This document shows, in pieces, positions 8,345 through 62,850 of a DNA stretch of 64,000 nucleotides. Under the pieces are notes generated by a model. That model was not told the origin of the DNA. It saw only the letters and a list, made by a program, of their open reading frames with translations, and did not search any database. The position numbers and the translations under genes are program-made. The stretch spans positions 8,401 to 72,400 of the forward strand of contig JAQUMN010000017.1 in the NCBI GenBank assembly GCA_028718125.1. Direction: 5' to 3'. Source of the DNA: Kiritimatiellia bacterium. GTDB taxonomy: Bacteria; Verrucomicrobiota; Kiritimatiellia; JAAZAB01. Within the stretch, counting starts at the first letter, position 1. Each line of letters begins with the position of its first letter.

Positions 8345-8506
8345 CAGGAGTTCCCGCCGTCGTCCGGCAACTGCCGGACTATGGCGGGCAGGCTGCCCCT
8401 CCATGAATGCCGCTTTTTTCGCAATATTGGAGGGCGTCCTGATCACGCCGTGGGCGGGTATCGGGACTGCGACGCCGCTGCTTTCGACATGGATGACACA
8501 GCCGTG
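8345..8506 (+). repeat. Interspersed repeat family 2, copy 1 (~165 bp)
   Basis: Shares ~90% identity with 62690-62850 and, inverted and internally deleted, with 12181-12290. Contains the CCGGCAACTGCCGG hairpin and a CCTCCA...TGGAGG stem. Confidence 0.7.
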
Positions 8507-8520
8507 AAGCCGGCCATAAT

Positions 8521-8706
8521 TAAATGCATAGGAATTTTCCGCCGGAGGCGGATCCGCCTATGGCGGACAATCCGTCTTTGTTGTCATTCCGAGCGTAGCG
8601 AGGAATCTCGCCGCAAGAGATCCCTTCGACTTCGCTCAGGGCAGGCTCTTCACTGCGTTCAGGATGACAATCCGAACAGAATAAAAGCCGCCCCGCCTTG
8701 CGGAGC
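8521..8706 (+). repeat. Interspersed repeat family 1, copy B (immediately abutting family-2 copy)
   Basis: Near-identical to 3879-4077. A degenerate additional 'CCGGCCGGAGGCCTGGCGGCTATGG' module follows at ~8740-8770. Confidence 0.75.
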
Positions 8707-8762
8707 TTGATTAAATTAATATACAGGCAAACTCGAGTGGACCCCGGCCGGAGGCCTGGCGG

Positions 8763-9689
8763 CTATGGAAGCGCTTGCCGCCGATAGCCTGGGCGTAGCG
8801 TTCCGGCTATTACCTTGTTCAGGAAAGCGACATCACGGCGGAGCCGGTCTGTGCCAGTCATGTCGGGGGTGAAGTCCTCGATGATAATGGGCGCCTTGAC
8901 GCCGGCTGCATGCAGGGCGTTCAGCCAGGTGGGAATGTGCAGGTCGGAGTTCTCGAATGCCGAAAACTGCACGGTGACCACGTTGCACCCTAATGCATCC
9001 ACCTTGTCGACCACGCGCCGGGAGCCGCCCAGATGAACGCAGTCAATGTAGTCGCGGAGCACCGATACAGCCAGGTTTGGGTGCAGTTCGCCTTCGCGCG
9101 TGAAATTGGCGATATCGAAAATAACACCCAGCTCGCGCGGATCGAAGTGGCGGCAAATGGCCCAGGCCAGTCCCGGCGAGGTGACAAGCGAACGGCAATG
9201 AGTTTCAATGATGATTTTGATCCCCAGAGGACGCGCCATTGTCCGGACGATGATATCGTAACGGCGGATCATGCGTTCCAGAAGCTCCGCGTAATTGAAT
9301 GGCTTGTCGGGGCAGGGCGGGGGATCCACGCGCACACAGCGCGCTTGCGCTTTCGCCGCGCCTTCCAAGTGCAGACGCAGCGTTTCATCCGGATCATCAA
9401 TGTTTGCGCTGGGCAACGCGCCCCAGGGTTCCAGACCGGCCTTGCGCAACTGGGCGGTAATCACGGCGCCTTCCCGGAGAAATATTTGCGGTGTTAGATC
9501 GAACTTGTGGTTGCCCCAGTTGCTGTAGGGCTTGCTGCGCTGGGCTTCCGGGATGATCCGCGGACGATACTGGTAATAATGCAACCCCAATTCAGCGCAC
9601 AGCGCAATCTGTTCCTCAAAATCCAGTTCCGGCAACATGACCGCGGTAACGCCAAGGTCCATAATGGCCTCCGAAAAACATGGCTGCAT
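8763..9689 (-). CDS. Sugar phosphate isomerase/epimerase (xylose-isomerase-like TIM barrel)
   Basis: 308 aa with AP-endonuclease-2/xylose-isomerase-like TIM barrel hallmarks and no signal peptide. Confidence 0.65.
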   Translation of the reverse strand: MQPCFSEAIMDLGVTAVMLPELDFEEQIALCAELGLHYYQYRPRIIPEAQRSKPYSNWGNHKFDLTPQIFLREGAVITAQLRKAGLEPWGALPSANIDDPDETLRLHLEGAAKAQARCVRVDPPPCPDKPFNYAELLERMIRRYDIIVRTMARPLGIKIIIETHCRSLVTSPGLAWAICRHFDPRELGVIFDIANFTREGELHPNLAVSVLRDYIDCVHLGGSRRVVDKVDALGCNVVTVQFSAFENSDLHIPTWLNALHAAGVKAPIIIEDFTPDMTGTDRLRRDVAFLNKVIAGTLRPGYRRQALP

Positions 9690-9705
9690 TCAATCAGTTA
9701 TAGTC

Positions 9706-10809: not shown

Positions 10810-10925
10810 CGTCGTCTCCCGTATTATTAATCAATGATCAGTTCTTTATCCTGAGCTATACACTACACGCCGGACGCTCCACACTCAACGTGTTTTTGCG
10901 CCGTTCGTTGCATTTTCAATGTCTG

Positions 10926-12152
10926 TCACGTCATCCGTCGTCGGTCGAAAGTCATCTGGCCGCCGACGCCAAGATCTTTGCCGTAAATCGCGAAATAGAC
11001 CGTACCCAACAGGCCGCAGGCGCATGCCGTAATAAAATTAGTCGCCGGCGATACCATCCAGAGCAAGGCGCCGCCAAACGCGGCCACGGAAACAATCACG
11101 TCCCGGATCAAATAATACAGGCCGAACATTCCGGCTTTCTGGTCTTCCGGCGCCAGGTCCATGATCAACGCCTTGCGGGTCGGCTCGCCGAATTCCTTCA
11201 ATCCCCGGATCACAAACGCCGCCGCCATCATGGCAAACGAGTGCGAAAACAGCAGGATGAGCGGGAACAGGGCGAAGTTGAAAAACGTGATGACCACGAA
11301 CGGCTTCTTGGCGCTGCGGTCGGCCAGCCACGCCACGGGCACATAAATCAGCATGGCGGTGATCATTTCAATAGCCGTCAGCACGCCGAACTGAACGGCC
11401 GATAATGTGTTGTTTTTTAGGCACCAGATGACGACGAAGGCGTAGGGGATCTGCTCGGCAAATCGCACCAGGATATCGGAAACCAGTAATTGCTTCAGCG
11501 CCGGCGCCATACGGGCCCAGAGTGCGAACGGATTTTTTTCAGCCGCTCGGCGGCGCGGAGCATCCTCCCTGATCATGGCTTGCTGGAGCGCCATTGATAC
11601 CACCGCCAGTGCCAGGGCGATGCCAAAGGAAAGCCGCACCCCCGTACGTTCACCGAAGCTCTGAATCATGACGCCGCCCAGGAGCGGTCCTAAAGCCATC
11701 GGCATACGCCGCACCAGGGAATGCATGGAAACGCCCATGGTGCGTTTGTTGGCCGGCAGAACCTGGGCCACCAGGCTCATGGTCGCCGGCAGGGAAATGG
11801 CGGTCCAGGAAAGGAAGAAAACGGAGCCGACTATGACCGCCTGCCAGTAGGGAAACAGGATGACAATTGCATAGCCCAGCATGGCGATTCCGTTGAACAG
11901 CGCCAGGGCGCGCTTGGTGCCCAGCCGGTCGCTGATATATCCGCCTGGAAATGAATAGAGCGCCGAGAGCAGGTTATCCATGCCGTTGAGCACACCGACA
12001 GTCATGATTCCGCCGCCCAGGGCCAGCAGGTAAATTGGCAGAAACCGCTCAGCCATCTTTTCGCCCAAGCCGATCAGGACGACCATGGCCAGCAGTGCCA
12101 CCATGCTTTGTTTGAGCGCGAAAAAATGAATGACCTTATTTATTGCGGTCAT
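10926..12152 (-). CDS. MFS transporter
   Basis: About 12 TM helices. Start moved to the ATG (rc) at 12150-12152 ('MTAINKV...') because the first 34 codons of the track ORF are translated from the family-2 repeat. Confidence 0.7.
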   Translation of the reverse strand: MTAINKVIHFFALKQSMVALLAMVVLIGLGEKMAERFLPIYLLALGGGIMTVGVLNGMDNLLSALYSFPGGYISDRLGTKRALALFNGIAMLGYAIVILFPYWQAVIVGSVFFLSWTAISLPATMSLVAQVLPANKRTMGVSMHSLVRRMPMALGPLLGGVMIQSFGERTGVRLSFGIALALAVVSMALQQAMIREDAPRRRAAEKNPFALWARMAPALKQLLVSDILVRFAEQIPYAFVVIWCLKNNTLSAVQFGVLTAIEMITAMLIYVPVAWLADRSAKKPFVVITFFNFALFPLILLFSHSFAMMAAAFVIRGLKEFGEPTRKALIMDLAPEDQKAGMFGLYYLIRDVIVSVAAFGGALLWMVSPATNFITACACGLLGTVYFAIYGKDLGVGGQMTFDRRRMT

Positions 12153-12180
12153 AAAAATGCCATGCGGGCAATGTTTCGGC

Positions 12181-12290
12181 ACGGCTGTGTCATCCATGCC
12201 AAAACCAGCGGCGGCGCGGAGCTCCTCCCTCCAATATCGCGAAAACATTGGCATTCATGGAGGGTCGAGCTCCCGCGAGACCGTTCTTGA
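12181..12290 (-). repeat. Interspersed repeat family 2, copy 2 (inverted orientation, ~50 bp internal deletion)
   Basis: Reverse complement of the family-2 consensus: 'ACGGCTGTGTCATCCATG...GGCATTCATGGAGGG...GCGAGACCGTTCTT'. Confidence 0.65.
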
Positions 12291-12407
12291 CGCAGCCCTG
12301 AATGTTCCGGTTTCGTTTCTTGTTTTTTATGGCGATTTTGCGTTGAATAAGGTAATATATATCCAACCATGAAACCGCACACAAGGCAAATGGGAGCCGG
12401 CCCCGAC

Positions 12408-13715
12408 ATGACCCGGCGGCATTTCGTATTGCTTTCGGCAGCGGGGGCCGTAGCGGTGCTGACCGGCTGTGCTACTGACCCGGTAACGGGCAAAAAGCAG
12501 TTCATGCTGATGTCGGAAGCGGGCGAGGTGGGGGCGGACAAGGAAAATTCTCCCCACCAGATCTCGGCCGATTACGGCGCTTTGCAGAATACCGGTCTCA
12601 ACCGGTATATCACCACCGTTGGTGATTTGCTGGCCTCCAAATCCCACCGGCCGGCTATGCCTTATACATTTCGAGGCGTCAATGCCGTATATGTGAATGC
12701 CTATGCCTTTCCGGCGGGCACCATTGCCGTGACGCGCGGGATGCTGGTCGATCTGCAGAGCGAGGCCGAGCTGGGCGCCCTGCTGGGTCACGAGATCGGG
12801 CATGTTTGCGCCCGGCATGCCGCCGAGCAGGCCACCAAAGGCATCGTGTCCTCCGTGGTAGTGACGGGCCTGGCCGCATTCGTTCAGTATCAGTTCGACG
12901 GCTACGGCGACTTGACCTCCGGGCTGGGCATTGTGGCCGCCGGCGCGCTCCTGGCGCGCTACAGCCGCGCGGACGAGCGCGAGGCCGATGCCCTTGGCCT
13001 GGAATACATGACCCGCGTCGGCTATAATCCCGAAGGCTCGGTTGGCCTCATGGATATACTGCGCAAACTTTCCAAGGATAAACCCAACGCCATTGAAATG
13101 CTGTTTGCCACGCATCCCATGAGCGAGGAGCGCTATCAGACCGCCGTCGAGGCGGTGCGCACGAAATATGCGGCCGCTAAAAACAACCCCCTGAACCGCG
13201 AGCGTTACATGGATACAACCGCTTCGCTACGGGCCATCAAGGGTGCGATTGACCAGATGCAGAACGGCGAAAAGGCCATGAGCGCCGGCAAGTATGACGA
13301 GGCTGCCGCCTGTTATGCAAACGGCTTGCGTCAGGCGCCCAATGATTATGCCGGCTTGTTGATGCTGGCCCGCTGCCGGCTGATGCAGAAACAGGCTGCC
13401 GAAGCCGTTCGCCTGGCCCGCGAGGCCCAGGCTGTTTATCCCGGCGAAGCCCAGGCGGTCTATATTTCCGGAATGGCCAATCTGCAGACGCAAGCCTTTG
13501 ATGCCGCCTTTCAGGAATTTTCCAGCTACGAGAAACTTTTGCCCGGCAACCCGAACACGACTTATTTCAAGGGGTATGCCATGGAAGGTGCGGGCCAACG
13601 CCAGGCGGCCGCCGATAACTACATGCGCTACCTCAATTCCGTTCGCCAGGGCGAATATGCCGAGCACGCCCGGAGCAAGCTGGTCGAGTGGGGCTATATC
13701 AAGAAAGGCACATGA
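12408..13715 (+). CDS. M48-family peptidase with C-terminal TPR repeats (BepA-like periplasmic protease/chaperone), lipoprotein with Tat-like signal
   Basis: HExxH motif 'HEIGHVCARH'. 'TRRHFVLL' followed by the lipobox 'LTGCATD'. The C-terminal ~170 aa are TPR-like (alanine-rich helical repeats). Confidence 0.8.
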   Translation: MTRRHFVLLSAAGAVAVLTGCATDPVTGKKQFMLMSEAGEVGADKENSPHQISADYGALQNTGLNRYITTVGDLLASKSHRPAMPYTFRGVNAVYVNAYAFPAGTIAVTRGMLVDLQSEAELGALLGHEIGHVCARHAAEQATKGIVSSVVVTGLAAFVQYQFDGYGDLTSGLGIVAAGALLARYSRADEREADALGLEYMTRVGYNPEGSVGLMDILRKLSKDKPNAIEMLFATHPMSEERYQTAVEAVRTKYAAAKNNPLNRERYMDTTASLRAIKGAIDQMQNGEKAMSAGKYDEAAACYANGLRQAPNDYAGLLMLARCRLMQKQAAEAVRLAREAQAVYPGEAQAVYISGMANLQTQAFDAAFQEFSSYEKLLPGNPNTTYFKGYAMEGAGQRQAAADNYMRYLNSVRQGEYAEHARSKLVEWGYIKKGT

Positions 13716-16811: not shown

Positions 16812-16927
16812 CTGCGGCCCGGCGGGGCGCCACGCATCCTGTGCAAAGCCGCCCGTTTTCCAGGCTGTGTCGATGCATCAATCATTTGCTTCGCAGCTCG
16901 GTGTCTGCCGGCCGGGGTGCCGGCTGC

Positions 16928-19567
16928 TTAGAAATAAAGGGTTATTTCGGCCTTGCCCGCGAAGGGCGCGATGCGCACGGTTTCACTGGCCGCGTCATAG
17001 ACGCCGCCTTGCGCCCTGACGGCCCGGCGCCCCTCGGGATGCGGCAGGCGCAGCAGCACGGTCTTGGGTTTGCGCCCTCCGTCGCACTTCACCTGCGCGC
17101 TGATCCGGTTGCGGCCAAGCTGCGATTCGACCGCGAGCGTCAGCGGCCCGAAATAGGTGGCCACCTGGTCGAGCCGGACGGTTTGACCGTCCGCGAGCCA
17201 TGCGCGCGGGATGGCGCTTAACAGGCGCAAGTCATTGCCATCCTCCAGCCAGAGCATCCAGCGCGTCTGCATCAGGAACCAGGCCTGTTCATGGGTCTTG
17301 TGTTCGCTGGCGTGATGGTAATGTTCCCAGAATGTGTAGGTCTCGCGGTCCTGCAGCGCGGTGATCTGGTTGTAATAAGTTTTGAGGAACGCCGCGACCT
17401 CGCCGCGCCGGATATGCGCATAATCATGCCGGCAGTAATAAGGCTGGCTCAGCGCGGCGTTTTCCAGGGTCACGGGATATTGATTGGTCTTGAGCATGAA
17501 CTTCGCGCCGATTTCAGCGGGATCGAGCGCCTCGCTGATGACCAGCCACAGCGGGCCGGTCAAACAACTGCGCGCAGCGAAGGCGCCATGGGTGAACCAA
17601 TTGCCGCCATCGGCATAGAAACTGATCCCGCCGGTATATTCCACCCACGGCGGCATGAGCGGCGCCCAGGAGCCGTCGGCCAGCGGTATGAGCGGCGCGC
17701 GCGCCTGCGCGTGATAAAACCCGGCGCGAATGTCTTTTAAATATTCCGGCAATTCGCCCGCGAGCATCCGGGCATATTCCGGATCAACATCGCGCAGGAT
17801 TTCCGCCACGCGCTTCAGGCCGACATAAGTGCCGGCATTCAGGAAAAAAGAGTGATAAAAATCGTTGCAATCGGCCACCTTGCCGTTGACCATGCCGTAA
17901 AATCCCTTGGCGCGGTATTCCTCCAGCTTGTTGCGTTCCCGCCATTGCAGGAGGTAATCGGCGGCTTTCCTGATGTTAGGCAGTACGCGCTTGAGCCAGG
18001 CCGCATCGCGCGTATAGCGGAAATGCTCGCCGGCGGTCCAAAGCAATGGGCCGGTCTCGCTTTCATACTTGCCGAAGTTCTGAATGAACCCGTCGGGCCG
18101 CTGGCGCACGAAGAAGAAGTCAAGGCAGCGCTCGGCTAATTTGTGCCAGCCCATGGAATCGAAGAATTGAATAATCGGCGCGCTTTCGGTCCCGATGGGC
18201 GCGTACCAGCCGATCGTGGCCAGCACCGGCCCATCCGGCTCGCGTCCCAATGCCACGAGGTCGCAGTGTAACAGTCCTGCCTGGATGTTCTCCTGAATCG
18301 GCTTTTCCGGCACGGTAATTTTTGCTGCCGAGGCCAGGCGCGCGCGCCAATATTCGCGGCAGGCATCCAGATGTGCGTTAAAATCCAGTTTCAGCAAGGC
18401 TTGGGCGCGCGCCGCATCCAGGGGCGAGTGCGGGATCAGGATGTCGAATTTCACGGTCTGGCCCGGTTGCAGCAAAACAGCCATTTCCTCTTCCGGCAGG
18501 GCCTGGTCGTCAAGCCGGTTGACGGCATAAACCGTGCCGGCGGATTCCAAGACGGAAAAGCCGTTCTTGAATTGATGTTTATCCGGCGTCGCACGCCCGG
18601 GAAAACCGCATATGTGCCCGGCTTTGAACCAGGCATAGCGCGGCGTCTTGCCGGTGTTGACGGCTTCCACGCGCAGGCAACAGACAACTTCCTGCTCGCG
18701 CTGCCGCATCTCGGCTTGTAGCCGATCATACATTGCCGTTTTTTGTTCAGCGGTCAGCATATTGCCGCCGGCATTGGCATAGCAAGCATCCCACTCCGAT
18801 CCGCGGACGGCGTCCGCGCTGAGCGGTGCTTTTTCCAGCGAGGCAAATAGAACGAGATTGTAATGGACATCCTGCTCGACCTGGGTGGAGCGTAAAATGG
18901 GCAAGACGCCATCTTCCTGGCGCCGTGTGATTTGCGGGCGGCAGGAAGTCCCCTGGCCGATTTCAAAATTCACCTGGTAGGCCGTGGGGGGAGTGCGTTC
19001 CATTATCGGTGTCCGGCTTACGGGAATATATTGCGGGATGCTGTGATAACATGGTTGAATCTGTCCCCAATATTCGTAGCGTTCCTGATATCCCACGCGA
19101 AACATGCGCATATCGCGGCCAAGTCCCAGCCAGGTCGAACAATATTGCCTGCGATTCAAGCGCGCCGCATGGGCGTAAGATTCTTCCGGAGCGTTGTCAA
19201 ACCGCGTGAAGTCGGAAATCAAGCCGCGGGCGGCAACATCTCCGGCTACCTGCGCATAATCGCGCGCGTCACCTCCGGGAACCACCGCCGCCTGGAATTC
19301 CGGAATAAAAACGGGAGTGGCGGAATTGACGTCGCGCAAATTGAAGGCAAACGGATTTTCATCCGTAACGACATTGCAGATTGTCGGGAACGCCCCGCAT
19401 TTCAAGGTGAATTCCGAAAACGAAATTTCCAGCCGCCCGCCCTGCGGCAACTGGAAGCGATTTTCGGCGCTATTGCCGCCTGGCGCATGCAAACGCCCGA
19501 CTTTCCCGTTGCGCGCCATGATCGTGCCGTTGACATTATTCCGGCCGAACAATACTGTGATCTTCAT
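16928..19567 (-). CDS. Large hydrolase-like protein, paralog 1 (probable (alpha/alpha)6 six-hairpin glycosidase-like), cytoplasmic
   Basis: About 880 aa and roughly 60% identical over its full length to 25158..27782 (e.g. 'GWYAPIGTESAPIIQFFDSMGWHKLAERCLDFFFVRQRPDGFIQNF'). Start placed at 'MKITVLF'. Confidence 0.55.
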   Translation of the reverse strand: MKITVLFGRNNVNGTIMARNGKVGRLHAPGGNSAENRFQLPQGGRLEISFSEFTLKCGAFPTICNVVTDENPFAFNLRDVNSATPVFIPEFQAAVVPGGDARDYAQVAGDVAARGLISDFTRFDNAPEESYAHAARLNRRQYCSTWLGLGRDMRMFRVGYQERYEYWGQIQPCYHSIPQYIPVSRTPIMERTPPTAYQVNFEIGQGTSCRPQITRRQEDGVLPILRSTQVEQDVHYNLVLFASLEKAPLSADAVRGSEWDACYANAGGNMLTAEQKTAMYDRLQAEMRQREQEVVCCLRVEAVNTGKTPRYAWFKAGHICGFPGRATPDKHQFKNGFSVLESAGTVYAVNRLDDQALPEEEMAVLLQPGQTVKFDILIPHSPLDAARAQALLKLDFNAHLDACREYWRARLASAAKITVPEKPIQENIQAGLLHCDLVALGREPDGPVLATIGWYAPIGTESAPIIQFFDSMGWHKLAERCLDFFFVRQRPDGFIQNFGKYESETGPLLWTAGEHFRYTRDAAWLKRVLPNIRKAADYLLQWRERNKLEEYRAKGFYGMVNGKVADCNDFYHSFFLNAGTYVGLKRVAEILRDVDPEYARMLAGELPEYLKDIRAGFYHAQARAPLIPLADGSWAPLMPPWVEYTGGISFYADGGNWFTHGAFAARSCLTGPLWLVISEALDPAEIGAKFMLKTNQYPVTLENAALSQPYYCRHDYAHIRRGEVAAFLKTYYNQITALQDRETYTFWEHYHHASEHKTHEQAWFLMQTRWMLWLEDGNDLRLLSAIPRAWLADGQTVRLDQVATYFGPLTLAVESQLGRNRISAQVKCDGGRKPKTVLLRLPHPEGRRAVRAQGGVYDAASETVRIAPFAGKAEITLYF

Positions 19568-22013: not shown

Positions 22014-22110
22014 GAAAAATCCTGAATATCATACGTATGCGTGCTTTGCAAGCAATCCGATAAATTCCAAGTTCCACAATCAAAATTCCAGGGAATATTC
22101 AAATTCTAAT

Positions 22111-22310
22111 TAAATGCATAGGAATTTTCCGCCGGAGGCGGATCCGCCTATGACGGACAATCCGTCTTTGTTGTCATTCCGAGCGTAGCGAGGAATCTCG
22201 CCGCGAGAGATCCCTTCGACTTCGTTCAGGGCAGGCTCTTCATTGCGTTCAGGATGACAATCCGAACAGAATAAAAGTCGCCCCGCCTTGCGGGGCCTAA
22301 TTTGAAAAAA
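22111..22310 (+). repeat. Interspersed repeat family 1, copy C; an inverted partial copy of its 5' module lies at 22436-22492
   Basis: Near-identical to copies A and B. The downstream inverted 'GATAGGAAACAGGAATTTTTCCGCCCTGGCGGATGCGCACAGGCGGAAC' (rc) resembles the element's 5' end. Confidence 0.75.
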
Positions 22311-25024: not shown

Positions 25025-25157
25025 TGCATGCCTCCTTTTTTTATTGTTAGGAATTTCAAAATCACGCGGCTACAGTAGAAACTTTTCAGAATGTAACTAC
25101 CACTCGGTTGGGGCGTCTGCAAAGTTAACCCGTTCCTCGGGGCTTAATTTAATCTGA

Positions 25158-27782
25158 TCAGAAATATATTACCACATCAGCCTTGCCCTTGAAGGGCGTG
25201 ATGCGCACCGTTTCATGTTTTGCGTCGTAAACGCCGCCTTCAACTTTTATGGCTTTGCGTCCTTCGGGATGCGGCACACGAATAAGCACTGTCTTCGGCT
25301 TGCGGTTGCCGTCGCACTCCACGTGGGCGCTAATCCGGTTGCGGTTAAGCTGCGATTCGACGGCGAACGTCAGCGGCCCGAAATAGCTGGCCACCCGGTT
25401 TAGCCGGATTGCTTGGCCGTCCGCGAGCCATGCGCGCGGGATGGCGCTTAACAGGCGCAAGTCCTTGCCATCCTCCAGCCAGAGCATCCAGCGCGTCTGC
25501 ATCAGAAACCAGGCCTCTTCGTGGGTCTTGTGCTGACTGGCGCCAAGGTAATGTTCCCAGAATGTGTAGGTTCCCCGGTCTTGGAGGGCGGTGAATTGAT
25601 TATAGTAAGTTTTGAGGAACGCCTTGACTTCACCGCGCTTAAGGTGGATGTAGTCATGGCGGCAATAGTAGGGCTGGCTCAAGCCGGCATTGCGCACAGT
25701 CATCAGTGCCTGGTGCGACTTCAGCGGGAATTCCGTGCCAAGCTCATTCGCATCGAGCACCTCCGAAATAACCAGGTACAGGGAGCCGATAAGCGAGTCC
25801 CGTCCGCTGAATGTTCCGTGGGTGAACCACTTGCCGCCCTCGGCATAAAGCGCCAGCGCCCCGGGGTATTCGGTCCAGGGCGGCGCCGATGAAACCCATG
25901 TCCCGTCCCCGATGGGAACAACCGGCGACCGGGCAAGGGCCTCGTAAAAAGCCGCCCGGATATCCTGCTTGAACTCGCGCGCTTCCCGGGCCAGGCGCCG
26001 GGATGCTTGCGGATCGATGTTAGCCAGCATTTCCGCAACACGCTGGATGCCGACATAAGAAAGGCCGTTCAGCATGAAGGAATGGAAAAAATCCTGGGGG
26101 TCGGCGACCTTGCCGTCAAGCAACCCGTAACCCTTGCCGCGCAGTTCCGGCTTCTTGTTCCGTTCCCGCCAGGCGAGCAGGTATTCGCAGGCCTTGAGCA
26201 GGTTCGGCCGGATTCGCTTCACCCAGGCAATGTCGCGGGTGTAGCGGAAATGTTCGCCCATGGTCCAGAGGGCCGGCCCGGTTTCCAGTTGATACCCGTT
26301 AAAATTCTGGATGAAACCATCCTCCCGCTGGCGGTTGAAAAAAAACTGTAACGCGCGCTCGGCCAGGTGATGCCAGCCCATCGAATCGAAAAACTGGATG
26401 ATGGGCGCGCTTTCCGAGCCGATCGGCGAGTACCAGCCGATCGTGGCCAGCGCGGCGCCATCCGGCTCCTTGCCAAGTGTGGTAATGTCGCAGTGCAACA
26501 GGCCCGCCTGGATGCGTTCGTTGATCGCCCGCTCCGGGACGTGGATTGATGCGGCAGCGGACAGCTTGGCGCGCCAGAATTTCCGGCAGGCATTGAGGTG
26601 TGCGTCAAAATCGAGCTTGGACAGTTTGGCGGCGCGCGCGCGCGGCAGCGGTTGATGGGGAATCAATATTTCAAATATGGCTGTCTCCCCCGGCTGGAGC
26701 AGAACCGCCATTTCCTCTTCGGGCATGGGCGCGCCATTGAGGCGATGGATGGCGAACACGCGTCCTGATTCCAGGATGCCATAGCCGTTTGCGCTTTGAT
26801 AGCCCGCCGGTTTAAGCAGACGCGCTCCATAGAAAGACCCGCCTTTGAACCATGCGTATTGCGGAGTGCGCTCCGTGTTCACCGCCGCGATGCGGATGAC
26901 ACAGACTGTTTCCTCGTCGCGCGCGCGCATTTCAGCGCGCAATAGATCCTTAAGTTTCTCCCGTTCCTCCGGCGTAAGCATGTTGCCGCCGGTATTGGGA
27001 TAACATGCGGTCCATTCGGAACCGCGCACGGCATTGGCCGAGAGCGGGCGATTTTCCAGGGTACAGAAGACGGTAAGATGATAATGGACATTTTCTTCGC
27101 GCTGCGTCGAGCGCAGGATGGGCAGGACGCCATCCTCCAGGCGCCGCGTGATGTCATACCGGCAGGAATTGCCCGGGCCAACCACGAATCCGATACTATA
27201 AGGCTTGTCGCCCGATTCCGGAATATTTTGAAGCGTGGAGTGATAGCGCGGCTGGACATATCCCCAGTAACCCAATTTGGGGTCGTAGCCTACTTCGAAA
27301 AAACGCATGTCGCGGCCAAGTCCCAACCAGGTAGGACACATCAGGTCCCGATTGCCGCGGCAGGCATTTTCGTAAGTTTCCTCCGGCTCCAGCTCGATTT
27401 GTTGAGATTTGCCTACAAAGCCCAGTTCGCGAATTTCCGCTTCGATTTCGGTATAAGATCGCCGATCAGCAGCTTCCGTGATCATGACGCCGTAGGCAGG
27501 AATATAGATCGGATGATCCCGGTTGATATCCCGCACAAAGCATGTGAACGCGTGCGGTTTGCCGGTAACGGTCAGACGGGTGGCAAATGCCCCGGCCTTC
27601 AATTGGGCATCGGCTATCCGGCATTCCAGCCGCACGGGACCTTTAGCCTGAATCCTGCCTTTTCCCGAAACGCGCCCCTTGCCTTGGACAATCCGGACTG
27701 ACTGTAATTGCCCATGCACAACGGTCAGTTCCGCTTGCACCGGCCCCGATTGCCACTCAAGGGCAATACATTTGGTTTTCAT
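25158..27782 (-). CDS. Large hydrolase-like protein, paralog 2
   Basis: Paralog of 16928..19567. Start placed at 'MKTKCIALEWQ' (27780-27782), immediately after the upstream gene's stop. The longer track ORF would overlap that gene by 134 nt. Confidence 0.55.
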   Translation of the reverse strand: MKTKCIALEWQSGPVQAELTVVHGQLQSVRIVQGKGRVSGKGRIQAKGPVRLECRIADAQLKAGAFATRLTVTGKPHAFTCFVRDINRDHPIYIPAYGVMITEAADRRSYTEIEAEIRELGFVGKSQQIELEPEETYENACRGNRDLMCPTWLGLGRDMRFFEVGYDPKLGYWGYVQPRYHSTLQNIPESGDKPYSIGFVVGPGNSCRYDITRRLEDGVLPILRSTQREENVHYHLTVFCTLENRPLSANAVRGSEWTACYPNTGGNMLTPEEREKLKDLLRAEMRARDEETVCVIRIAAVNTERTPQYAWFKGGSFYGARLLKPAGYQSANGYGILESGRVFAIHRLNGAPMPEEEMAVLLQPGETAIFEILIPHQPLPRARAAKLSKLDFDAHLNACRKFWRAKLSAAASIHVPERAINERIQAGLLHCDITTLGKEPDGAALATIGWYSPIGSESAPIIQFFDSMGWHHLAERALQFFFNRQREDGFIQNFNGYQLETGPALWTMGEHFRYTRDIAWVKRIRPNLLKACEYLLAWRERNKKPELRGKGYGLLDGKVADPQDFFHSFMLNGLSYVGIQRVAEMLANIDPQASRRLAREAREFKQDIRAAFYEALARSPVVPIGDGTWVSSAPPWTEYPGALALYAEGGKWFTHGTFSGRDSLIGSLYLVISEVLDANELGTEFPLKSHQALMTVRNAGLSQPYYCRHDYIHLKRGEVKAFLKTYYNQFTALQDRGTYTFWEHYLGASQHKTHEEAWFLMQTRWMLWLEDGKDLRLLSAIPRAWLADGQAIRLNRVASYFGPLTFAVESQLNRNRISAHVECDGNRKPKTVLIRVPHPEGRKAIKVEGGVYDAKHETVRITPFKGKADVVIYF

Positions 27783-29124: not shown

Positions 29125-29187
29125 CGATTTCCGATTTCTAATTTCTAATTTCTAATTTCTAATTTCTAATTTCTAATTTCTAATTTC
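29125..29187. repeat. Heptanucleotide microsatellite: 7 perfect AATTTCT units plus degenerate flanking units (GATTTCC, GATTTCT at the 5' end; AATTTCA at the 3' end); fills the divergent aminotransferase/AraC promoter region
   Basis: Read directly. It begins 13 nt from the aminotransferase start codon and ends ~25 nt before the AraC ORF. Confidence 0.9.
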
Positions 29188-29213
29188 AACCTACTCTATT
29201 TCGCTGGGTTAAA

Positions 29214-30236
29214 ATGGCAATGGACGGGCAGGTAAATTATTTGTATTATCTTGCAATGGCTAAACAAGCGATTGCTGCGAATGCGAAGGGGTATGGTTGG
29301 ACTTGGCTGACGGTGCCGGCGGAGATGCCTGTGCTGGTCAACGCGACTCGCGCGGTTGGGATGGCGTCGCATTCGAGCCGGGGTGTCCGGCACAGCAATC
29401 CATACTGGGTGCTTGATTACAGTTTATCGGACTTGGGGTTGTTCAAGGTGGGACGGCGGACGGCTCCCTGGCTTCGTCATGCGGCCGGCGAAGCCCTGTT
29501 GTATCCGCCGCATACGCCCTACTGGGAGGACATGAGTTCAGTCAAGCCGCCGATTCGCAATGCCTGGCTGATGTTCTGCGGCGGTCCGGGCGCGGGTCTG
29601 GATACGCTGGTGAGGAGCGCGGCCGGCTATGCGCGATTTGTAGATCCCGAAGGCCGCTTGGGGCGTCTGATTGAGCAGGCGGCTGAAGTCGGGCAGCTTG
29701 AAGGGGACGGCGGTTTCTGGAAGGCCATGGGATTATTGTGCGAGGCTCTGGATTTGCTGCGGCATAGTGTGCCGATCAATGTTGATACCTACCGGATCCC
29801 GGCGACTATTTTGCCGGAGACGCCGACGCTGGCCACGGCAGTAACGGCCTACCTGCGCGAGCATATGGCCCAACGTCTTTCGCTGGGGATAATGGCGGGG
29901 CATCTGCATGTCAGCGTCTCGACGCTTTCGCATAGGTATCGCGCCGAAACGGGCGAGTCGCCGATCGCCACGCTCATTCGCCTGCGTATTCAGCAGGCCC
30001 GGAATCTCTTGATGAAAGGCCAGCGCCTTAAAACGATTGCCGCAACGCTCGGCTTCAGCGACGTCTATCACCTTTCCAAAATGTTCAAGCGCGTGGAAGG
30101 CCGCTCTCCCCGTCAATTTGTGAAAGCGATCAATGCGCCGCCCGGTCCGCAGCGCCCGGCTGCCGCGCGTGCAGGTCGTGTATGCGCAAGCGCGGGAAGC
30201 CCGCAGACGACCCGGGATCGCCGCCGAATTTTGTGA
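29214..30236 (+). CDS. AraC-family transcriptional regulator
   Basis: C-terminal AraC HTH ('IATLIRLRIQQARNLL...IAATLGFSDVYHLSKMFKRVEGRSPRQF'). The N-terminal domain is ligand-binding-like. The start could instead be 29259. Confidence 0.8.
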   Translation: MAMDGQVNYLYYLAMAKQAIAANAKGYGWTWLTVPAEMPVLVNATRAVGMASHSSRGVRHSNPYWVLDYSLSDLGLFKVGRRTAPWLRHAAGEALLYPPHTPYWEDMSSVKPPIRNAWLMFCGGPGAGLDTLVRSAAGYARFVDPEGRLGRLIEQAAEVGQLEGDGGFWKAMGLLCEALDLLRHSVPINVDTYRIPATILPETPTLATAVTAYLREHMAQRLSLGIMAGHLHVSVSTLSHRYRAETGESPIATLIRLRIQQARNLLMKGQRLKTIAATLGFSDVYHLSKMFKRVEGRSPRQFVKAINAPPGPQRPAAARAGRVCASAGSPQTTRDRRRIL

Positions 30237-37271: not shown

Positions 37272-38265
37272 CAAGGGATATGAAGTTCAAGGGGGTAGGG
37301 ATAGACAGCCTGTCCGCGCGTTAGACGCTTCCCCATTACGATACACGTTTTTGCATGTATAAATATAAATATAAGTTCGAAATGCTTGTTGCGGAGATCG
37401 TTAAACGTTGCCTTATCCTCCCCTTCTAACGAAGGCAACTGGGCGGCATGCAACCGTGTGGCGAATTTGGTTTCCGCCGGAGGCGGATTCGCAAAAGCAA
37501 GGCAAGCTTGGGCTGGATGTGGGTGCGCCGCGCGAAGCATAGGACTTAACTCCATGCGAGCGCGGCAAACTCGCAGGCGGCCCAAGATCGCCGCCGCCCT
37601 TTGCGAACCTAATTCGCCACACTGCCGAGGGAAGAAACATAATTGGATTGCGGGCGCTTAGCCCGCCTTAAGGCATTAAGTGCATTACCGTAAAATCCTG
37701 CGGCACAGGGCGGCTGAAACAAAATCTTGAAAAGGCCGGCTTGGGTGATATCCTGATTGACGTGAAGCATACCCCTATTTTAACCGGGAGTTTTCTTTTA
37801 CTCCTGTTTGCCATCGGTATCGTTCTGTTACCGGTCTGGCATAAAGCCAACCTGGGCGCTTTCTCCGCCATGCTAACGCAAGGCGCCTCGAATGCGCCGA
37901 TCAAGAAAAACAACGAAAGCGGAAAAGCTTCCCGCACGGAACACAACACGGCGACATGCATGATTTGCCGTGTGGCAAGCATGGCCTTTGCATCGCCAAC
38001 GCCGGCGGTTATCCCCGCCATTGGAACGTTATTCATTCTTGGATTTATTCATCCGTCTAACGTTGTCGCGTCCCGCGTCTTTCTTGCCCTGCCTCCCGTT
38101 CGCGCTCCGCCGCCCGCACATTCCTGACGGTCATTCGGCAACATCGTTCGGTGGACATATTCATCAATCCCGGGAGTGTTTGTTCGTGGTCAAGAAATCG
38201 GTTGTTTTGTTCGACCGAATTGATCGGAAACGGGCCGGCGCACCTTCATGGGTTAATGGGCAAGC

Positions 38266-41044: not shown

Positions 41045-41877
41045 GAACCGCCTCCTGCCACCATACGTCCCAAGGCATTGGCGAGATTCCATATGCGAGC
41101 CACGGCAAAAAACGCCGTCCAACCCCCTATAAATGCCCAATCGGTCCACCGAAAGGAAGTCTGGCACAAAACCCGGATCTCGCCATTTCCGCCGCTGGCG
41201 GATCCGCCTACGGTGGAAAAACCGCGGGATACCATAGCGCGATAAACGCGATCCGCGCGATCCATGGAGCGCAGGAAAAGATGCCCCACGAGCGAGCCAT
41301 ACACGCGCAAGCGCAAAGACCGCGGTCCGGCGGAACGGAGTTCCATGCTGCGCATCATCCGGGCGCCTTCGTCGGCGACAACGAACAGGTAGCGGTAGAG
41401 GAACAGCAGTTGGACCACAAACACCTGCGGCACGCACATCCGTTCCAAACCCGCACCAAGCCGGTGAATGCCGGTGCAGGCTATCAGCGCCAGGGCCGCG
41501 CTGACCGTCAAAAAGAAGCGGAGCATGATCGAGGCGAACGAAAGCCACCCGCCCGAAATGCTCCATGCCCCAACGCTGGCGATCGTCTGGCGGTCCAGCA
41601 AAGGATTGAACATGCCTATGACCAATGCAAACGGCACGGCGATTAGAATTTTTCGAAAAATATATCCGAACGGAATCCGTCCCAATGCAAGCAATGTGAA
41701 CGGATAGAGAAAAAAAGGCATTAGGGCGGACACTTCATAACGCGGGAACGACATGACGACCACTATGAAAATCAGGGTTGTGATGACCTTGGCCCGAGCA
41801 TCGAGACGATGCACGGGCGTGTCCAGTCGCCCCAGTTCATCCATGCGGCCAATTTCAATCCATTGTCCTATTCCCAT
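41041..41877 (-). CDS. ECF-transporter transmembrane T component (NikQ/CbiQ)
   Basis: 278 aa, CbiQ-like membrane protein. Confidence 0.75.
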   Translation of the reverse strand: MGIGQWIEIGRMDELGRLDTPVHRLDARAKVITTLIFIVVVMSFPRYEVSALMPFFLYPFTLLALGRIPFGYIFRKILIAVPFALVIGMFNPLLDRQTIASVGAWSISGGWLSFASIMLRFFLTVSAALALIACTGIHRLGAGLERMCVPQVFVVQLLFLYRYLFVVADEGARMMRSMELRSAGPRSLRLRVYGSLVGHLFLRSMDRADRVYRAMVSRGFSTVGGSASGGNGEIRVLCQTSFRWTDWAFIGGWTAFFAVARIWNLANALGRMVAGGGS

Positions 41878-49695: not shown

Positions 49696-49699
49696 AAGC

Positions 49700-49763: not shown

Positions 49764-50579
49764 TTACCAATTCGCGTTAACAATGGGGAGAATTTTCCAG
49801 ATGCTTTCTTTGCCCCACGCGATATTGAGAACGCCGATCTGCAGGCCATTCAATATGGATGTGTAGTTGATCACGCCAAGCTGGAGCCCCTTGACTTCAT
49901 TGGCGAAATTCAAGCCCACCCACTGGGCGCCATCCAACTTGTCGGCCCAGTTAATCAATCCCGTCTGCCAACAGGCTTCTTCCATAGCTGCGTTGATGAT
50001 GCCGAACTGAGCATCAATCGCACTGCCGGCGGCATTAATGCCACCCACCTGGCCGCCGGCCACGCTGCCGCTGTTCAAGTTGATCAAGCCGACTTCCAAG
50101 CCCTCAGCATTTCCGCCAACCATGTTCAGGATGCCGTAATCATAGCCGGACAAATTCCCGCTGGTCAAGTTGATCAGGCCTGCTTCCGCGCCGGAGACAT
50201 TGCCGCCGACCAGGTTGATGAACGACACCGTTGAGCCGGACACGTTCCCGGCCACAAAGTTGATGGCGCCCAATTGACCGCCGGTCACGTTGCCGCCGAC
50301 CAGGTTAATGATACCAAGTTGCAGACCTCTCTGGTCCTTGTTCACTTGGTTCGCAATACCCAGGTCAACGCCGGTCACATTTTCATTGGCCCCGTAGATC
50401 AGGTTGATCCGCAGGCCGTTGACCGAGGAACTGTCGCTGAGAATAGCAACCGGGCTGACGAGTGAGAGTTGGAACGGATAGGCTTTTTCGGTTACTGTCG
50501 CTTTTGGAGCCTGCGCAACCGCACTGCTGACCAGCCCGATTACACACGCGAGACTGAATAATATCGAATAACGTTTCAT
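49764..50579 (-). CDS. Secreted protein built of ~13-aa tandem repeats (G-x-I-N-x-V-G-G-N-V-x-G), beta-solenoid-like
   Basis: Signal peptide 'MKRYSILFSLACVIGLVSSAVAQA'. At least 10 consecutive 'GLINL/GIINLVGGNVTG'-type repeats follow. Confidence 0.6.
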   Translation of the reverse strand: MKRYSILFSLACVIGLVSSAVAQAPKATVTEKAYPFQLSLVSPVAILSDSSSVNGLRINLIYGANENVTGVDLGIANQVNKDQRGLQLGIINLVGGNVTGGQLGAINFVAGNVSGSTVSFINLVGGNVSGAEAGLINLTSGNLSGYDYGILNMVGGNAEGLEVGLINLNSGSVAGGQVGGINAAGSAIDAQFGIINAAMEEACWQTGLINWADKLDGAQWVGLNFANEVKGLQLGVINYTSILNGLQIGVLNIAWGKESIWKILPIVNANW

Positions 50580-50887
50580 TTCTTTTCCCTTCATTGCACG
50601 TCATGATTGAGACGAAATAACCGTTTGTTTAGTAAACCCAGCACCACTCACATGTCGTTCAATCACCTCCTTCCGGATTTGTAATCATTTTGAGTATACA
50701 CAAACATGCAATATATATTTGAATTATTACAAGCACCTGCTGCTTTGTCAATATATTTTTAAAATAGTCAACGGGCGGGGACATCATTCAATGATTACGT
50801 GCTTGTCAACTGGTGTGATCTCATGAAATAATTACAAAAGTTAAACGGTTAAAGGGCGAGTTGAAATGTCGATCGTGATTACGCGCC

Positions 50888-57911: not shown

Positions 57912-57914
57912 GCT

Positions 57915-59258: not shown

Positions 59259-59387
59259 TGGATTCCCGCTTTCGCGGGAATGACCCCGCTTCGCTCGGAG
59301 GCTGCGCAGGGCAGGCAGAATGGATGGACATTGTTTGTCATTCCCGACCTGACTCGCCTCGGCGGAGCCAGGGTCGGGAATCCAGGA
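59259..59387. repeat. REP/MITE-like element with two ATTCCC...GGGAAT hairpins (ATTCCCGC-tttc-GCGGGAAT and ATTCCCGACC-N22-GGTCGGGAAT) downstream of glnA
   Basis: Read directly. The ends are inverted (TGGATTCCCG ... CGGGAATCCAGG). Confidence 0.55.
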
Positions 59388-59415
59388 TTTTGGGCGCGGC
59401 GTTATCCGAACAGGC

Positions 59416-60840: not shown

Positions 60841-60949
60841 ATGCCAACCTCCTGTGTTGAACCAATCCCGTTAGTCCCCAACAAATTATTTCCAAAAGTA
60901 TTGCACGAAACGTTCCGGATGCGCAAAACATTATTAAACCAAAAAAAGT

Positions 60950-62530
60950 CTAACCGAAATCGTAACAAAACGCGGACAGTGCCCGAATCTTCCGGCTGAT
61001 GTTATCCATGACCTGCGCCGGAACTGGCTTGTTGATCCGCATTATGACCAGCGATTCGTTGACCTTCAGGTGATGCGGGTTGCGCACGTCCTCGATATTG
61101 ATTTTGGCCATGGCCAGGGCCGAGCCGATCTGACCCAGGACGCCGGGGCGGTCCTCGTAAATGAAAAATACGGTGGGCCCCTTTGGCTCAAAATACAGCC
61201 TGTCGAAGTCGTTGATCCGCGCAATCATGAGCGCTCCTTCCACGACCGTGCCGCGCACGCTGATCCGACGCAGGCTTCCGGCATCCAGCGTGCCGACCAG
61301 GTCAATGGTCATGGAATTCTCAAAGTGCTTGTTGGGATCGGTTGTGCGGTTGGCCACCTCGATCCCCATATCCTTCAGAAACTTACGTGCTGATTTGTTG
61401 TCCATAGGCTGGTCAATCCGATCGCCCAGCGCGGTGACCACGGGGATCATCAGCCAGTCGCTGAATGGTTCCAGCAACCCGTAAAAGCTGGTTTCGAGGC
61501 TCGCCAACTTGGCGGTCGGGCCCAGCAGATGGCGACAGAGCTTGGTAATTGTAAAGGCCAGCTTGCCGTAGGCTTCATTCAGGCCCTCGGGCACCTCGCG
61601 GTTGACGATGAAGCTGGTAATTCCCTTCTCATCCAGTTCAATCAGTTCCTCGGCGGCGCGGCGCGCGGCGTTGGTATTGGCTTCCACCGTACTGGCGCCC
61701 AGGTGGGGCAACATGATGTCGGCAATGTCGGCCACGCTTTTGAGGCCCTCGGCGTCCTTGGGATAGACATCGTTAAGGAACCGGATATTTTTCGCCGCCT
61801 TGACCTGACGTAGCGCCGCCTCATCCAGAATGCCGGCCCGGGCGCAATTGATCAGGGTAGCGCCTTCTTTCATCCGGCTGATGAGTGCCAGGTTAATCAG
61901 TCCGCGGGTTTCTTCGTTTTCCGGGATGTGCAGGGTGATATAATCGGCCTGAGCAAAAAGCACGGGGAGTTCGACCAGTCCCACTGCCATGGCATCGGCG
62001 CGTTCCTGGGAGATGAGGGGGTCGTAGCCCAGCAACTTGACATCAAACCCCGCCAGGCGCTTGGCAACCAGTTGGCCGATATTGCCCAGGCCGACAATTC
62101 CGATTGTTTTACCCGTGAGTTCGCGGCCCATTAATTTTTTCTTTTCCCATTTGCCCTCGCGCGTGGTGATGTCGCCCGCGATAATGTGGCGGGCGTCCGC
62201 CAGCATGAGCGCGACGACTTCCTCGGCCACGGCGTTGGAGTTGGCGCCGGGAGTGTTCATGACGTCAATGCCCTTCTTGCGGGCGTGCTTGATGTCGATT
62301 GTGTCATATCCCGTACCGGCGCGAACGATCACCTTGAGATGAGGTAGGGCGTTCATTAGCGCGGGGGTCACTTTTTCACTGCGCACGATAAGCGCATAGG
62401 TGTCGGCATGCTGGCCGACCAGCGCAAGAATGTCGGTTTTATCGTCTTGAATGACCGTGTAGTGCCCGTTGGCTTCCAGGAGCTTGCGCGCTCCGCTTTC
62501 TAGCTTGGTAGGGATTAATACTTTTTTCAT
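60950..62530 (-). CDS. serA: D-3-phosphoglycerate dehydrogenase with C-terminal ACT domain
   Basis: 'GIVGLGNIGQLVAKR' NAD-binding motif. Long SerA form (526 aa) with ASB and ACT domains. Confidence 0.85.
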   Translation of the reverse strand: MKKVLIPTKLESGARKLLEANGHYTVIQDDKTDILALVGQHADTYALIVRSEKVTPALMNALPHLKVIVRAGTGYDTIDIKHARKKGIDVMNTPGANSNAVAEEVVALMLADARHIIAGDITTREGKWEKKKLMGRELTGKTIGIVGLGNIGQLVAKRLAGFDVKLLGYDPLISQERADAMAVGLVELPVLFAQADYITLHIPENEETRGLINLALISRMKEGATLINCARAGILDEAALRQVKAAKNIRFLNDVYPKDAEGLKSVADIADIMLPHLGASTVEANTNAARRAAEELIELDEKGITSFIVNREVPEGLNEAYGKLAFTITKLCRHLLGPTAKLASLETSFYGLLEPFSDWLMIPVVTALGDRIDQPMDNKSARKFLKDMGIEVANRTTDPNKHFENSMTIDLVGTLDAGSLRRISVRGTVVEGALMIARINDFDRLYFEPKGPTVFFIYEDRPGVLGQIGSALAMAKINIEDVRNPHHLKVNESLVIMRINKPVPAQVMDNISRKIRALSAFCYDFG

Positions 62531-62689
62531 AGATTTCGCCTTCTGGTATGGTGAACTGGATGATCGTCATCATTTTATTGTTTTTGTGAACTTTTGTGCT
62601 TTTGTGAGTGCAAATATACGCATCTTGGGCCATATACACAAGCCGTGTTTTGTTCCAGGGCTGTGTCAAGAACGGTCTCGCAGAAGAGC

Positions 62690-62850
62690 CCTCCTTCGTC
62701 CGGCAACTGCCGGACTATGGCGGGCAGGCGGCCCCTCCATGAATGCCAATGCTTTCGCGATATTGGAGGGCGTCCCGATCACGCCGCGAGGGCGGGTTAT
62801 CGGGCGGGACTGCGACGCCGCTGGTTTCAGCATGGATGACACAGCTGTGC
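62690..62850 (+). repeat. Interspersed repeat family 2, copy 3
   Basis: About 90% identical to 8345-8506. An additional ~25 bp on its 5' side (from 62668) matches the 3' end of inverted copy 2 at ~12266-12290, so the element boundaries are fuzzy. Confidence 0.7.

Follow-up and report, generated by a model that had tools for sequence, protein, structure and literature searches.

A dispersed family of short intergenic repeats, three copies of which lie in the 64-kb stretch of DNA analyzed here (the window), is best read as a MITE, probably derived from the ISAs1 family and probably old, that occurs in forms of 187 to 194 bp and of 121 bp; we put the probability of this reading at roughly 0.7. 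The element is regarded as a transposon-type element because it has terminal inverted repeats, shows 10-bp target-site duplications at two of the four known copies, and is absent from the orthologous sites of relatives. It represents an ordinary kind of parasitic DNA and conceals no micro-protein gene. The original prediction had described a dispersed intergenic repeat carrying a pseudo-ORF, and both parts of that description are borne out; the terminal inverted repeats, the 10-bp duplications, and the absence from orthologous sites had been overlooked.

Copies, ends, and target-site duplications

The three copies in the window, as detected with nhmmer, are listed in Table 1. Matches to a 36-nt core pattern in the 64-kb window fell exactly on these three sites (chance expectation, 0). 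A fourth copy, of the short form, was the one true match in a pattern scan of metagenomes, on a single contig, and these four (three in the window of this genome and one metagenomic) are the only copies known. The related copies were thus found near the positions first proposed for them, while the left limits given at that time were too short. All four copies share their boundaries, CAGG at the left and CGTG at the right, and the DNA flanking them is unrelated. Identity between copies is 77 to 87% overall, with 82% between copies 1 and 2, and reaches 88 to 91% in the best blocks only, which is below the 90 to 95% originally suggested. The left-terminal ~50 nt of copy 1 are degenerate.

The inverted copy 3 had been thought to carry one internal deletion of ~50 bp. 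It lacks instead two internal blocks, of 41 nt and 32 nt (25 to 32 nt across copies), that flank the central hairpin, and comparison of the long and short forms shows that 66 to 73 nt of the element interior are dispensable. The metagenomic copy is 85 to 87% identical to copy 3 over the full 121 nt, with ends identical in position. Because the same-ended short form recurs in this independent contig, it represents a subfamily and not a one-off. The central hairpin (38 nt) is almost invariant across copies; CCGGCAACTGCCGG, first described for every copy, was found in the two long copies only and is absent from copy 3.

The repeated unit begins and ends precisely with a 13-nt terminal inverted repeat, CAGGGCTGTGTCA...TGACACAGCCGTG, of the pattern CA(G/C)GGCTGTGTCA. 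Its two halves match at 11 of 13 positions in copies 2 and 3, at 9 of 13 in the metagenomic copy, and at 5 of 13 in copy 1; the chance of an end match of at least 11/13 in a random segment is ~3.5e-5 per site. When the window was searched for the 13-mer with up to two mismatches, all five matches were element ends (1.05 expected). The left end reads CAGGG in three of the four copies and CAGGT in the metagenomic one, and the right end reads CACGG or CACAG. Directly abutting the element are 10-bp direct repeats, matching at 9 of 10 positions, at both copy 3 (CCGGAACATT/CCGAAACATT) and the metagenomic copy (ATTCATCTGC/ATTTATCTGC). Since an abutting 9/10 repeat has a chance of ~7e-5 per site, duplications at two of four copies have a probability of ~3e-8. 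No recognizable abutting duplication was found at the long copies 1 and 2, and their flanks, compared by eye for duplications swapped between the two copies (a postrecombination pattern), did not match. Loss of the target duplication is expected in older MITE copies (PMC10969869). The level of identity between copies, the single mismatch in each surviving duplication, and the loss of duplications at two copies suggest that the insertions are old and that the family may be inactive.

Table 1. Coordinates of the repeat copies and their features in the window
Feature	Position	Strand	Remarks
Copy 1, long form	8320..8506	+	187 bp; nhmmer E=5.7e-59, full model length
Copy 2, long form	62656..62849	+	194 bp; nhmmer E=1.2e-58
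Copy 3, short form	12180..12300	-	121 bp; nhmmer E=2.8e-33
Left terminal inverted repeat, CAGGGCTGTGTCA	62656..62668	+	Equivalents at 12288-12300 (-) in copy 3 and 8320-8332 (degenerate) in copy 1
Right terminal inverted repeat, reverse complement CACAGCTGTGTCA	62837..62849	-	Copy 2
Right-end equivalents, both CACGGCTGTGTCA	8494-8506; 12180-12192	-; +	Copy 1; copy 3
Target-site duplication of copy 3, first copy AATGTTTCGG	12170..12179	+	Abuts element; 9/10 match to 12301-12310
Target-site duplication of copy 3, second copy AATGTTCCGG	12301..12310	+	Abuts other element end
Conserved central imperfect hairpin, CCCTCCATGAATGCC...GCGATATTGGAGGG	62733..62770	+	All copies; also 8397-8434 and 12227-12264 (-)
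Long-form-only hairpin, GTCCGGCAACTGCCGGAC	62696..62717	+	Also ~8360-8381; absent from copy 3 and the metagenomic copy

Insertion sites in the window and in relatives

Each window copy sits in a promoter-proximal spacer, 27 to 125 bp from gene starts; for two of the copies the flanking genes diverge, and the third precedes a single gene. The spacers are AT-rich, and the element itself is GC-rich (61 to 64% GC). Copy 1 precedes the start of a minus-strand ORF (7254-8276) by 43 bp and lies 10 bp from a repeat of family 1 (8517-8719), within a block (7254-9689) that is variable throughout among relatives; the adjacent ORF was considered as a transposase candidate, without support from Pfam or NCBIfam. 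This single juxtaposition of the two repeat families may reflect an insertion hotspot, as originally suggested, or may equally be coincidental. The divergent genes on either side of copy 2 are serA-like (starting at 62530) and a 60-aa ORF (starting at 62948); those on either side of copy 3 code for an MFS protein (true start at 12152) and an M48 protease (start at 12369).

The spacers of copies 2 and 3 were compared with their orthologs. Copy 3 was absent from the orthologous spacer in six related loci, and the spacer between the MFS and M48 genes measures ~21 to 42 bp in contigs of at least five related assemblies or runs and 216 bp in the window. Copy 2 was absent from the orthologous spacer in three related loci; in one of these, the spacer between the serA-like gene and the 60-aa ORF is 195 bp long, compared with 417 bp in the window, and the flanking motifs are conserved on either side of the insertion point. 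The element therefore accounts for intergenic spacers that are ~200 bp longer in this MAG than in its relatives. These empty sites are not base perfect, because the flanking proteins of the relatives are only 81 to 91% identical to those of the window and, at the copy 3 site, because the window spacer carries ~70 bp of additional sequence beyond the element. In line with the empty sites, a profile built from the four copies found no match in 137 kb of related loci and three in the 64-kb window. The element can thus serve as an insertion-polymorphism marker for this uncultured Kiritimatiellae lineage.

Wider searches returned no additional copy. The exact pattern of the core hairpin had no match among the GTDB representative genomes, a collection without the source genome, and five matches there to a 19-mer from the right end were set aside as chance, since similarity stops at the 19-mer itself. 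Two exact patterns had no match in viral contigs, and BLAST hits in a plasmid collection were limited to two partial alignments at chance level (37 nt, 87% identity, E 0.2).

Reading frames and alternative explanations

Mechanical ORF calling produces frames at 8342..8710, 12149..12541, and 62469..62951, as well as a 442-aa MFS ORF at 10926..12254. The deposited MFS protein (MDD5678019.1) has 408 aa and its orthologs have 407 to 412 aa, starting at the codon equivalent to 12152, which confirms that the N-terminal extension of the called ORF is false, as had been predicted. The MAG that encodes MDD5678019.1 also encodes MDD5678062.1 (locus tags PHW60_*). Two other deposited proteins, MCG2658800.1 and MBU4212129.1, share at least 90% identity with the MFS protein of the window. 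The prediction was also right that the apparent peptide is a pseudo-ORF giving rise to spurious ORF calls, none of which appears in the public annotation. Recognition of the element clears the three spurious ORFs and the false 34-residue MFS extension, and its main value lies in annotation; it opens no long-standing question.

A real micro-protein, read in the frame MAGR..PLHEC..CFR..IGGR..MDDTAV, is favored by the similar peptide strings that are readable in all copies, and one frame had been said to give the same peptide in each of them. However, copy 1 (8320) is the only one in which the segments MAGR..HEC..IGGR and MDDTAV can be read in a single frame; in the other two window copies their frames differ. 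Every indel between copies breaks the frame: 7 nt between copies 1 and 2, 41 and 25/32 nt between the long and short forms, and 2 and 1 nt between copy 3 and the metagenomic copy, none a multiple of 3. The proposed check for a synonymous bias likewise failed to reveal a protein, with substitutions distributed 14/11/8 over the codon positions, which is no bias, and with 3 synonymous versus 16 nonsynonymous codon differences between copies 1 and 2 in the predicted frame. Six-frame translations of all copies matched none of 5.8 billion proteins, and the spurious ORFs are missing from the public protein collection. The "peptide" common to the copies simply follows from conservation of the nucleotides, and we give a genuine micro-protein practically no credence. 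A structured noncoding RNA gene or cis-regulatory leader, duplicated upstream of several genes and with functional hairpins, would fit the promoter-proximal position of all three window copies, the retention of the central hairpin in every copy, and the folding of copy 3, which is better than that of its shuffles (z, -2.8 to -3.6). Against such an RNA, the folding of the metagenomic copy does not exceed that of its shuffles (z, +0.1 and +1.1), the folding of copy 2 is marginal (z, -1.7 and -2.2), the covariation term of the consensus fold is positive (unfavorable), and just 1 of 45 pairs has changed on both sides, a pair that distinguishes long copies from short ones. Rfam gave no match at the gathering score in the whole window and two chance-level matches at E values up to 1. 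Moreover, much of the interior is dispensable, the element contains no promoter-like or terminator-like sites, the neighboring genes have no function in common (serA-like, M48 protease, MFS, and a protein of unknown function), and the target-site duplications and terminal inverted repeats would be left without explanation. We therefore consider an RNA or leader very unlikely. An outward-facing promoter, suggested by TTGACA in the left end, was also considered, and no promoter-like site passed the scan; for this idea, two copies alone have an informative orientation with respect to genes. There is a slim chance that the element is more than a passive parasite and that its 38-nt central hairpin has been recruited as a portable module for protein binding or RNA-based regulation.

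REPs are short (~20 to 40 nt) single imperfect palindromes that are associated with RAYT and form no target duplication. A palindromic repeat, REP/BIME-like or otherwise, that owes its spread to recombination or to a RAYT-type (IS200/IS605-like) enzyme and not to a DDE transposase acting on terminal inverted repeats would suit a GC-rich and hairpin-rich element that sits in AT-rich spacers, unlike the AT-rich typical MITEs, and that has no flanking duplication at two of four copies; REP/BIME elements, too, are GC-rich palindromic intergenic repeats that produce spurious ORFs. The present element is, however, much longer (121 to 194 bp), has inverted termini, and is abutted by 10-bp duplications at two independent copies. 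It also shows no RAYT association, and no IS200/IS605-type gene is present among the Pfam-annotated neighbors in the related loci. A REP/BIME-like origin is thus highly improbable. Closer to the preferred reading is a MITE whose parental and mobilizing elements belong to an IS family outside ISAs1, such as a subgroup of the IS4 family. In some IS4-family subgroups, the ends begin with CA and the duplications measure 8 to 12 bp. This alternative gains from the right end, which is CACGG and not CAGGG, from a terminal inverted repeat that at 13 nt falls just under the 14 to 22 nt of ISAs1 (PMC11946415), and from the search for a parent: tblastn with E. coli YhhI and a search for the terminal inverted repeat, both covering the window and the 137 kb of related loci, turned up neither a transposase gene nor a full-length element with the same ends. 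Nevertheless, the first 8 nt of the left end, CAGGGCTG, are identical (8/8) to those of the ISAs1-family element ISArsp11, for which an IRL of CAGGGCTGATGCAAAGTCG and a 10-bp DR of GGAACAGCAC are reported (PMC6305408, Table 3), and a duplication of exactly 10 bp is also what the ISAs1 family produces (PMC11946415). We consequently regard a parent outside ISAs1 as unlikely.

Proposed mobilization and comparison with known elements

A MITE of ISAs1 descent suggests the following mechanism. A DDE transposase encoded elsewhere would bind the terminal inverted repeats (13 nt, perhaps more), would excise or copy the element, and would then insert it at a 10-bp staggered cut, the repair of which would yield the 10-bp target-site duplication. 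The mobilizing enzyme may be an ISAs1-family transposase, to which the CAGGG ends and the 10-bp duplication point; we infer both the mobilization in trans and the ISAs1 parentage from these features. The element hints that a transposase of the ISAs1 type is, or formerly was, active in this Kiritimatiellae lineage. In the literature searched, no paper was found that links ISAs1-derived MITEs with Kiritimatiellota, and it is conceivable, if improbable, that this is the first MITE of ISAs1 descent to be described and that no MITE family had been described for Kiritimatiellota before it.

Elements of the ISAs1 family have terminal inverted repeats of 14 to 22 bp that begin with CAGGG and generate a 10-bp target duplication (PMC11946415). 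The CAGGG left end, read in three of the four copies, and the length of the duplication are common to these elements and to the repeat described here. They differ in that ISAs1-family elements measure ~1.2 to 1.3 kb and encode a transposase, whereas this element has 121 to 194 bp and no transposase gene, and in that the inverted repeat of this element is 13 nt long, with CACGG at its right end. In E. coli K-12, yhhI of the H-repeat encodes a protein with the Pfam domains DDE_Tnp_1_assoc and DDE_Tnp_1, the domain pair of ISAs1-type transposases (PF13808 and PF01609); CAGGGAAAGATCATC occurs upstream of yhhI and CAGGGCAAGATTACG, read as the reverse complement, just after it, and these are taken to be the ends of the E. 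coli H-repeat.

Among the prokaryotic MITEs described to date, no sequence similarity to this element was found, and typical MITEs are AT-rich, whereas this element is GC-rich. In its organization, the element resembles Chunjie of Geobacter uraniireducens and QMITE1/2 of Coxiella burnetii (PMC10969869), which are likewise smaller than 500 bp, noncoding, and bounded by terminal inverted repeats. Here, the noncoding character is reflected in the lack of both a conserved frame and protein homologs. Small size, intergenic placement, and size variants have been described for prokaryotic MITEs (PMC10969869), the element falls within the range of about 50 to 500 bp usual for MITEs, and the element shares with them its intergenic location, target duplications that decay with age, size variants arising by internal deletion, and the potential to form hairpins.

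Extent, size forms and distribution of the family 2 repeat

Reading and aligning the three sites in the 64-kb window confirmed the repeat family, and a 36-nt core pattern (CCTCCATGAATGCC-N5-TTTCGC-N-ATATTGGAGG) has exactly 3 matches there, against 0 expected. The original prediction had placed the three sites about correctly but made the copies too short: an extra 26 nt at the left (CAGGGCTGYGTCAAGAACGGTCTCGC) is common to c2 and c3, with a degenerate version in c1, and profile alignment gave the limits listed in the table. Pairwise identity is 77 to 87%, with 88 to 91% reached in the best blocks only. The inverted copy, c3, had been described as carrying one internal deletion of about 50 bp; what is missing is a pair of blocks, of 41 nt and 25 to 32 nt, one on each side of the central hairpin. 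The CCGGCAACTGCCGG stem, which had been ascribed to all copies, is consequently missing from c3 and present in c1 and c2 only.

Family 2 copies in the window
Copy	Position	Strand	Basis
c1	8320-8506	+	end-to-end alignment to all-copy profile
c2	62656-62849	+	end-to-end alignment to all-copy profile
c3	12180-12300	-	end-to-end alignment to all-copy profile

Exact-pattern scans found no true copy in 185,579 representative genomes and one among 241 million metagenome records, on the minus strand of contig Ga0247841_10200621 (positions 591-710; here L001). Because diverged copies escape exact patterns, this census is a lower bound. The L001 copy is of the short form; it is 85 to 87% identical to c3 throughout its length and shares both ends with it. 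The short form thus constitutes a subfamily. As for the host, the M48 protease gene adjoining c3 shows 100% identity to a protein encoded on a 79-kb contig of "MAG: Kiritimatiellae bacterium," and the window's MFS protein (MDD5678019.1) and 60-aa protein (MDD5678062.1) both come from that Kiritimatiellae MAG.

Ends, target duplications and sites in relatives

Similarity begins at CAGG and ends after CGTG in 4/4 copies, and the flanks are unrelated. The ends are inverted repeats (left, CAGGGCTGTGTCA; right, as reverse complement, CACGGCTGTGTCA) that match at 11/13 positions in c2 and c3, 9/13 in L001, and 5/13 in c1. When the 13-mer was allowed up to 2 mismatches, the element ends were its only matches in the window (5, versus 1.05 expected). 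Each of the two short copies, c3 (CCGGAACATT/CCGAAACATT) and L001 (ATTCATCTGC/ATTTATCTGC), is bracketed by 10-bp direct repeats that abut its ends and differ at one position. Random window segments put the chance at ~7e-5 per site for a repeat of this kind and at 3.5e-5 for terminal inverted repeats of this kind; two duplications of the same length in 4 copies cannot be chance. No abutting duplication was found at either long copy (c1 or c2). Around c2, a 10-bp direct repeat (ACAAGCCGTG/ACAAGCCATG, 62640-62649 and 62857-62866) is offset outward from the ends by 8 and 6 nt; its left member belongs to TCAAGCTGTGTTTTG, a motif that relatives conserve upstream of serA, and is also similar to the right end of the element itself (ACACAGCCGTG). 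This pair may be coincidental, reflect a preference for end-like targets, or remain from an older insertion.

The insertion sites were compared with those on syntenic contigs taken from metagenomes and from MAGs of uncultured Kiritimatiellae/Verrucomicrobiota-labelled relatives, whose flanking proteins are 81 to 91% identical to those of the window. At the c3 site, both sides are alignable and the element is absent in L009, L010, L011, L013, L014, and L015, where the MFS and M48 start codons lie ~21 to 42 bp apart, versus 216 bp in the window. A further ~70 bp of the window's spacer, within 12153-12179 and 12311-12368, is also absent from the relatives, so that they do not offer a base-perfect empty site for c3. 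The right part of this extra spacer (TTCTTGTTTTTTATGGCGATTTTGCGTTGAATAAGG) looks as if the MFS start region had been duplicated and had then degenerated, and it resembles a remnant in L012, a relative without any MFS gene. At the c2 site, the spacer from serA to the 60-aa ORF measures 195 bp in L016 versus 417 bp in the window. Two conserved motifs flank the insertion point: to its left TCAAGCTGTGTTTTG, and to its right TTAAT...TTGACA. In relatives, the block around c1 (7254-9689) is either missing or otherwise arranged. Besides c1, it holds a 340-aa ORF without a family match, a family 1 copy, and a xylose-isomerase-like TIM-barrel gene; the possible insertion hotspot suggested in the original prediction (8.3 to 8.7 kb) falls within it. 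The block is missing from L009, in which the cation-efflux gene adjoins the PFK gene. The stretch from the Na/H exchanger gene to the M48 gene differs in gene content in almost every relative. A profile search of related loci (137 kb) found no family 2 copy, versus three in the 64-kb window.

Other repeats in the window

Family 1 is a separate 203-bp repeat (3875-4077, 8517-8719, and 22107-22309), with partial relatives at 37471-37509, 41186-41224, and, inverted, 6183-6211. Its copies are 94 to 98% identical, and it is therefore much younger than family 2. It contains internal inverted repeats (TGTCATTCCGAGC.../...GTTCAGGATGACA) and, near its right end, a terminator-like minus-strand hairpin (GCTCCGCAAGGCGGGGC) with a T-run. 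One segment of 30 nt has matches at three sites, annotated "transposase," on a Trichlorobacter lovleyi plasmid, and a search of ~105 kb of related loci (those other than L016 to L019) yielded no full copy.

Tandem paralogous small ORFs of 111 and 96 aa (63155-63490 and 63529-63819), each preceded by similar upstream sequence, have DNA repeats 71 to 89% identical, a hydrophobic N terminus, and a conserved GGLMGFIAGCCFG motif; the 111-aa ORF has no NCBIfam family match. Two large paralogous minus-strand ORFs of 886 and 922 aa, 8.2 kb apart, were compared over 16924-18203 and 25154-26430 (DNA identity, 70 to 79% over compared blocks). An AT-rich 14-bp tandem repeat (ATTTCTAATTTCTA, ~5 units, 29127-29196) sits in the spacer that precedes the gene with its start at 29214. 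A 45-nt periodicity at 50054-50311 (five overlapping 78-nt units, 60 to 73% identical) inside the minus-strand ORF 49764-50594 suggests that this ORF encodes a 15-residue repeat protein.

Nature of the element

The original prediction had reported one peptide in the same frame of every copy; only in c1 are MAGR..HEC..IGGR and MDDTAV in a common frame. A micro-protein was rejected, as the frame is not kept, indels between copies (7, 41, 25/32, 2, and 1 nt) break it, and nonsynonymous codon differences in the proposed frame outnumber synonymous ones (16 to 3). Substitutions between c1 and c2 number 14, 11, and 8 over the three codon positions, without positional bias, and the concatenated six-frame translation of all copies had no match among 5.8 billion proteins. 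The accompanying claim, that the repeat creates spurious ORFs and falsely extends the MFS transporter, held up: ORFs 8342..8710, 12149..12541, and 62469..62951 and the 442-aa MFS form are absent from the public protein collection, so that they and the 34-residue extension are confined to a mechanical ORF list, whereas the 408-aa MFS form is present in that collection. An RNA gene found no support either. Rfam gave no match at gathering score in the window, with chance-level matches alone at E up to 1; in the four-copy consensus fold, the covariation term is unfavourable and both sides change in only 1 of 45 pairs. Folding is uneven: c3 forms a long hairpin (z about -3), c2 is marginal, and shuffled sequences fold as well as the L001 copy. 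The element contains no promoter-like or terminator-like site, and its palindromic character is that expected from inverted ends and internal inverted repeats at the DNA level.

Family 2 is a new MITE family (MITEs being small non-coding mobile repeats) in an uncultured Kiritimatiellae genome, an ordinary feature and neither a micro-protein nor an RNA gene; we put the probability that it is a MITE of some family at roughly 0.87. Divergence among the copies, one mismatch in each remaining duplication, and the disappearance of the duplication from two copies point to old insertions. Prokaryotic MITEs are defined by small size, lack of coding, sharp inverted-repeat ends, a constant-length target duplication, insertion polymorphism, and size variants (PMC10969869, sections 1-2); likewise, family 2 is small, has no coding capacity, and shows sharp inverted-repeat ends, a constant 10-bp duplication, polymorphism, and size variants.

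The end signature points to the ISAs1 family, a parentage we favour slightly. Neither an ISAs1-like transposase nor a full-length element with these ends was found in the window or related loci, so that the parentage is an inference. Around yhhI, the gene of the H-repeat in E. coli K-12 (Pfam DDE_Tnp_1_assoc and DDE_Tnp_1), CAGGGAAAGATCATC lies upstream and CAGGGCAAGATTACG (reverse complement) just after the gene; we take these to be the putative ends of the H-repeat. ISArsp11, an ISAs1 family member, has the left inverted repeat CAGGGCTGATGCAAAGTCG and 10-bp direct repeats (PMC6305408, Table 3), and CAGGGCTG is common to that inverted repeat and the family 2 end.
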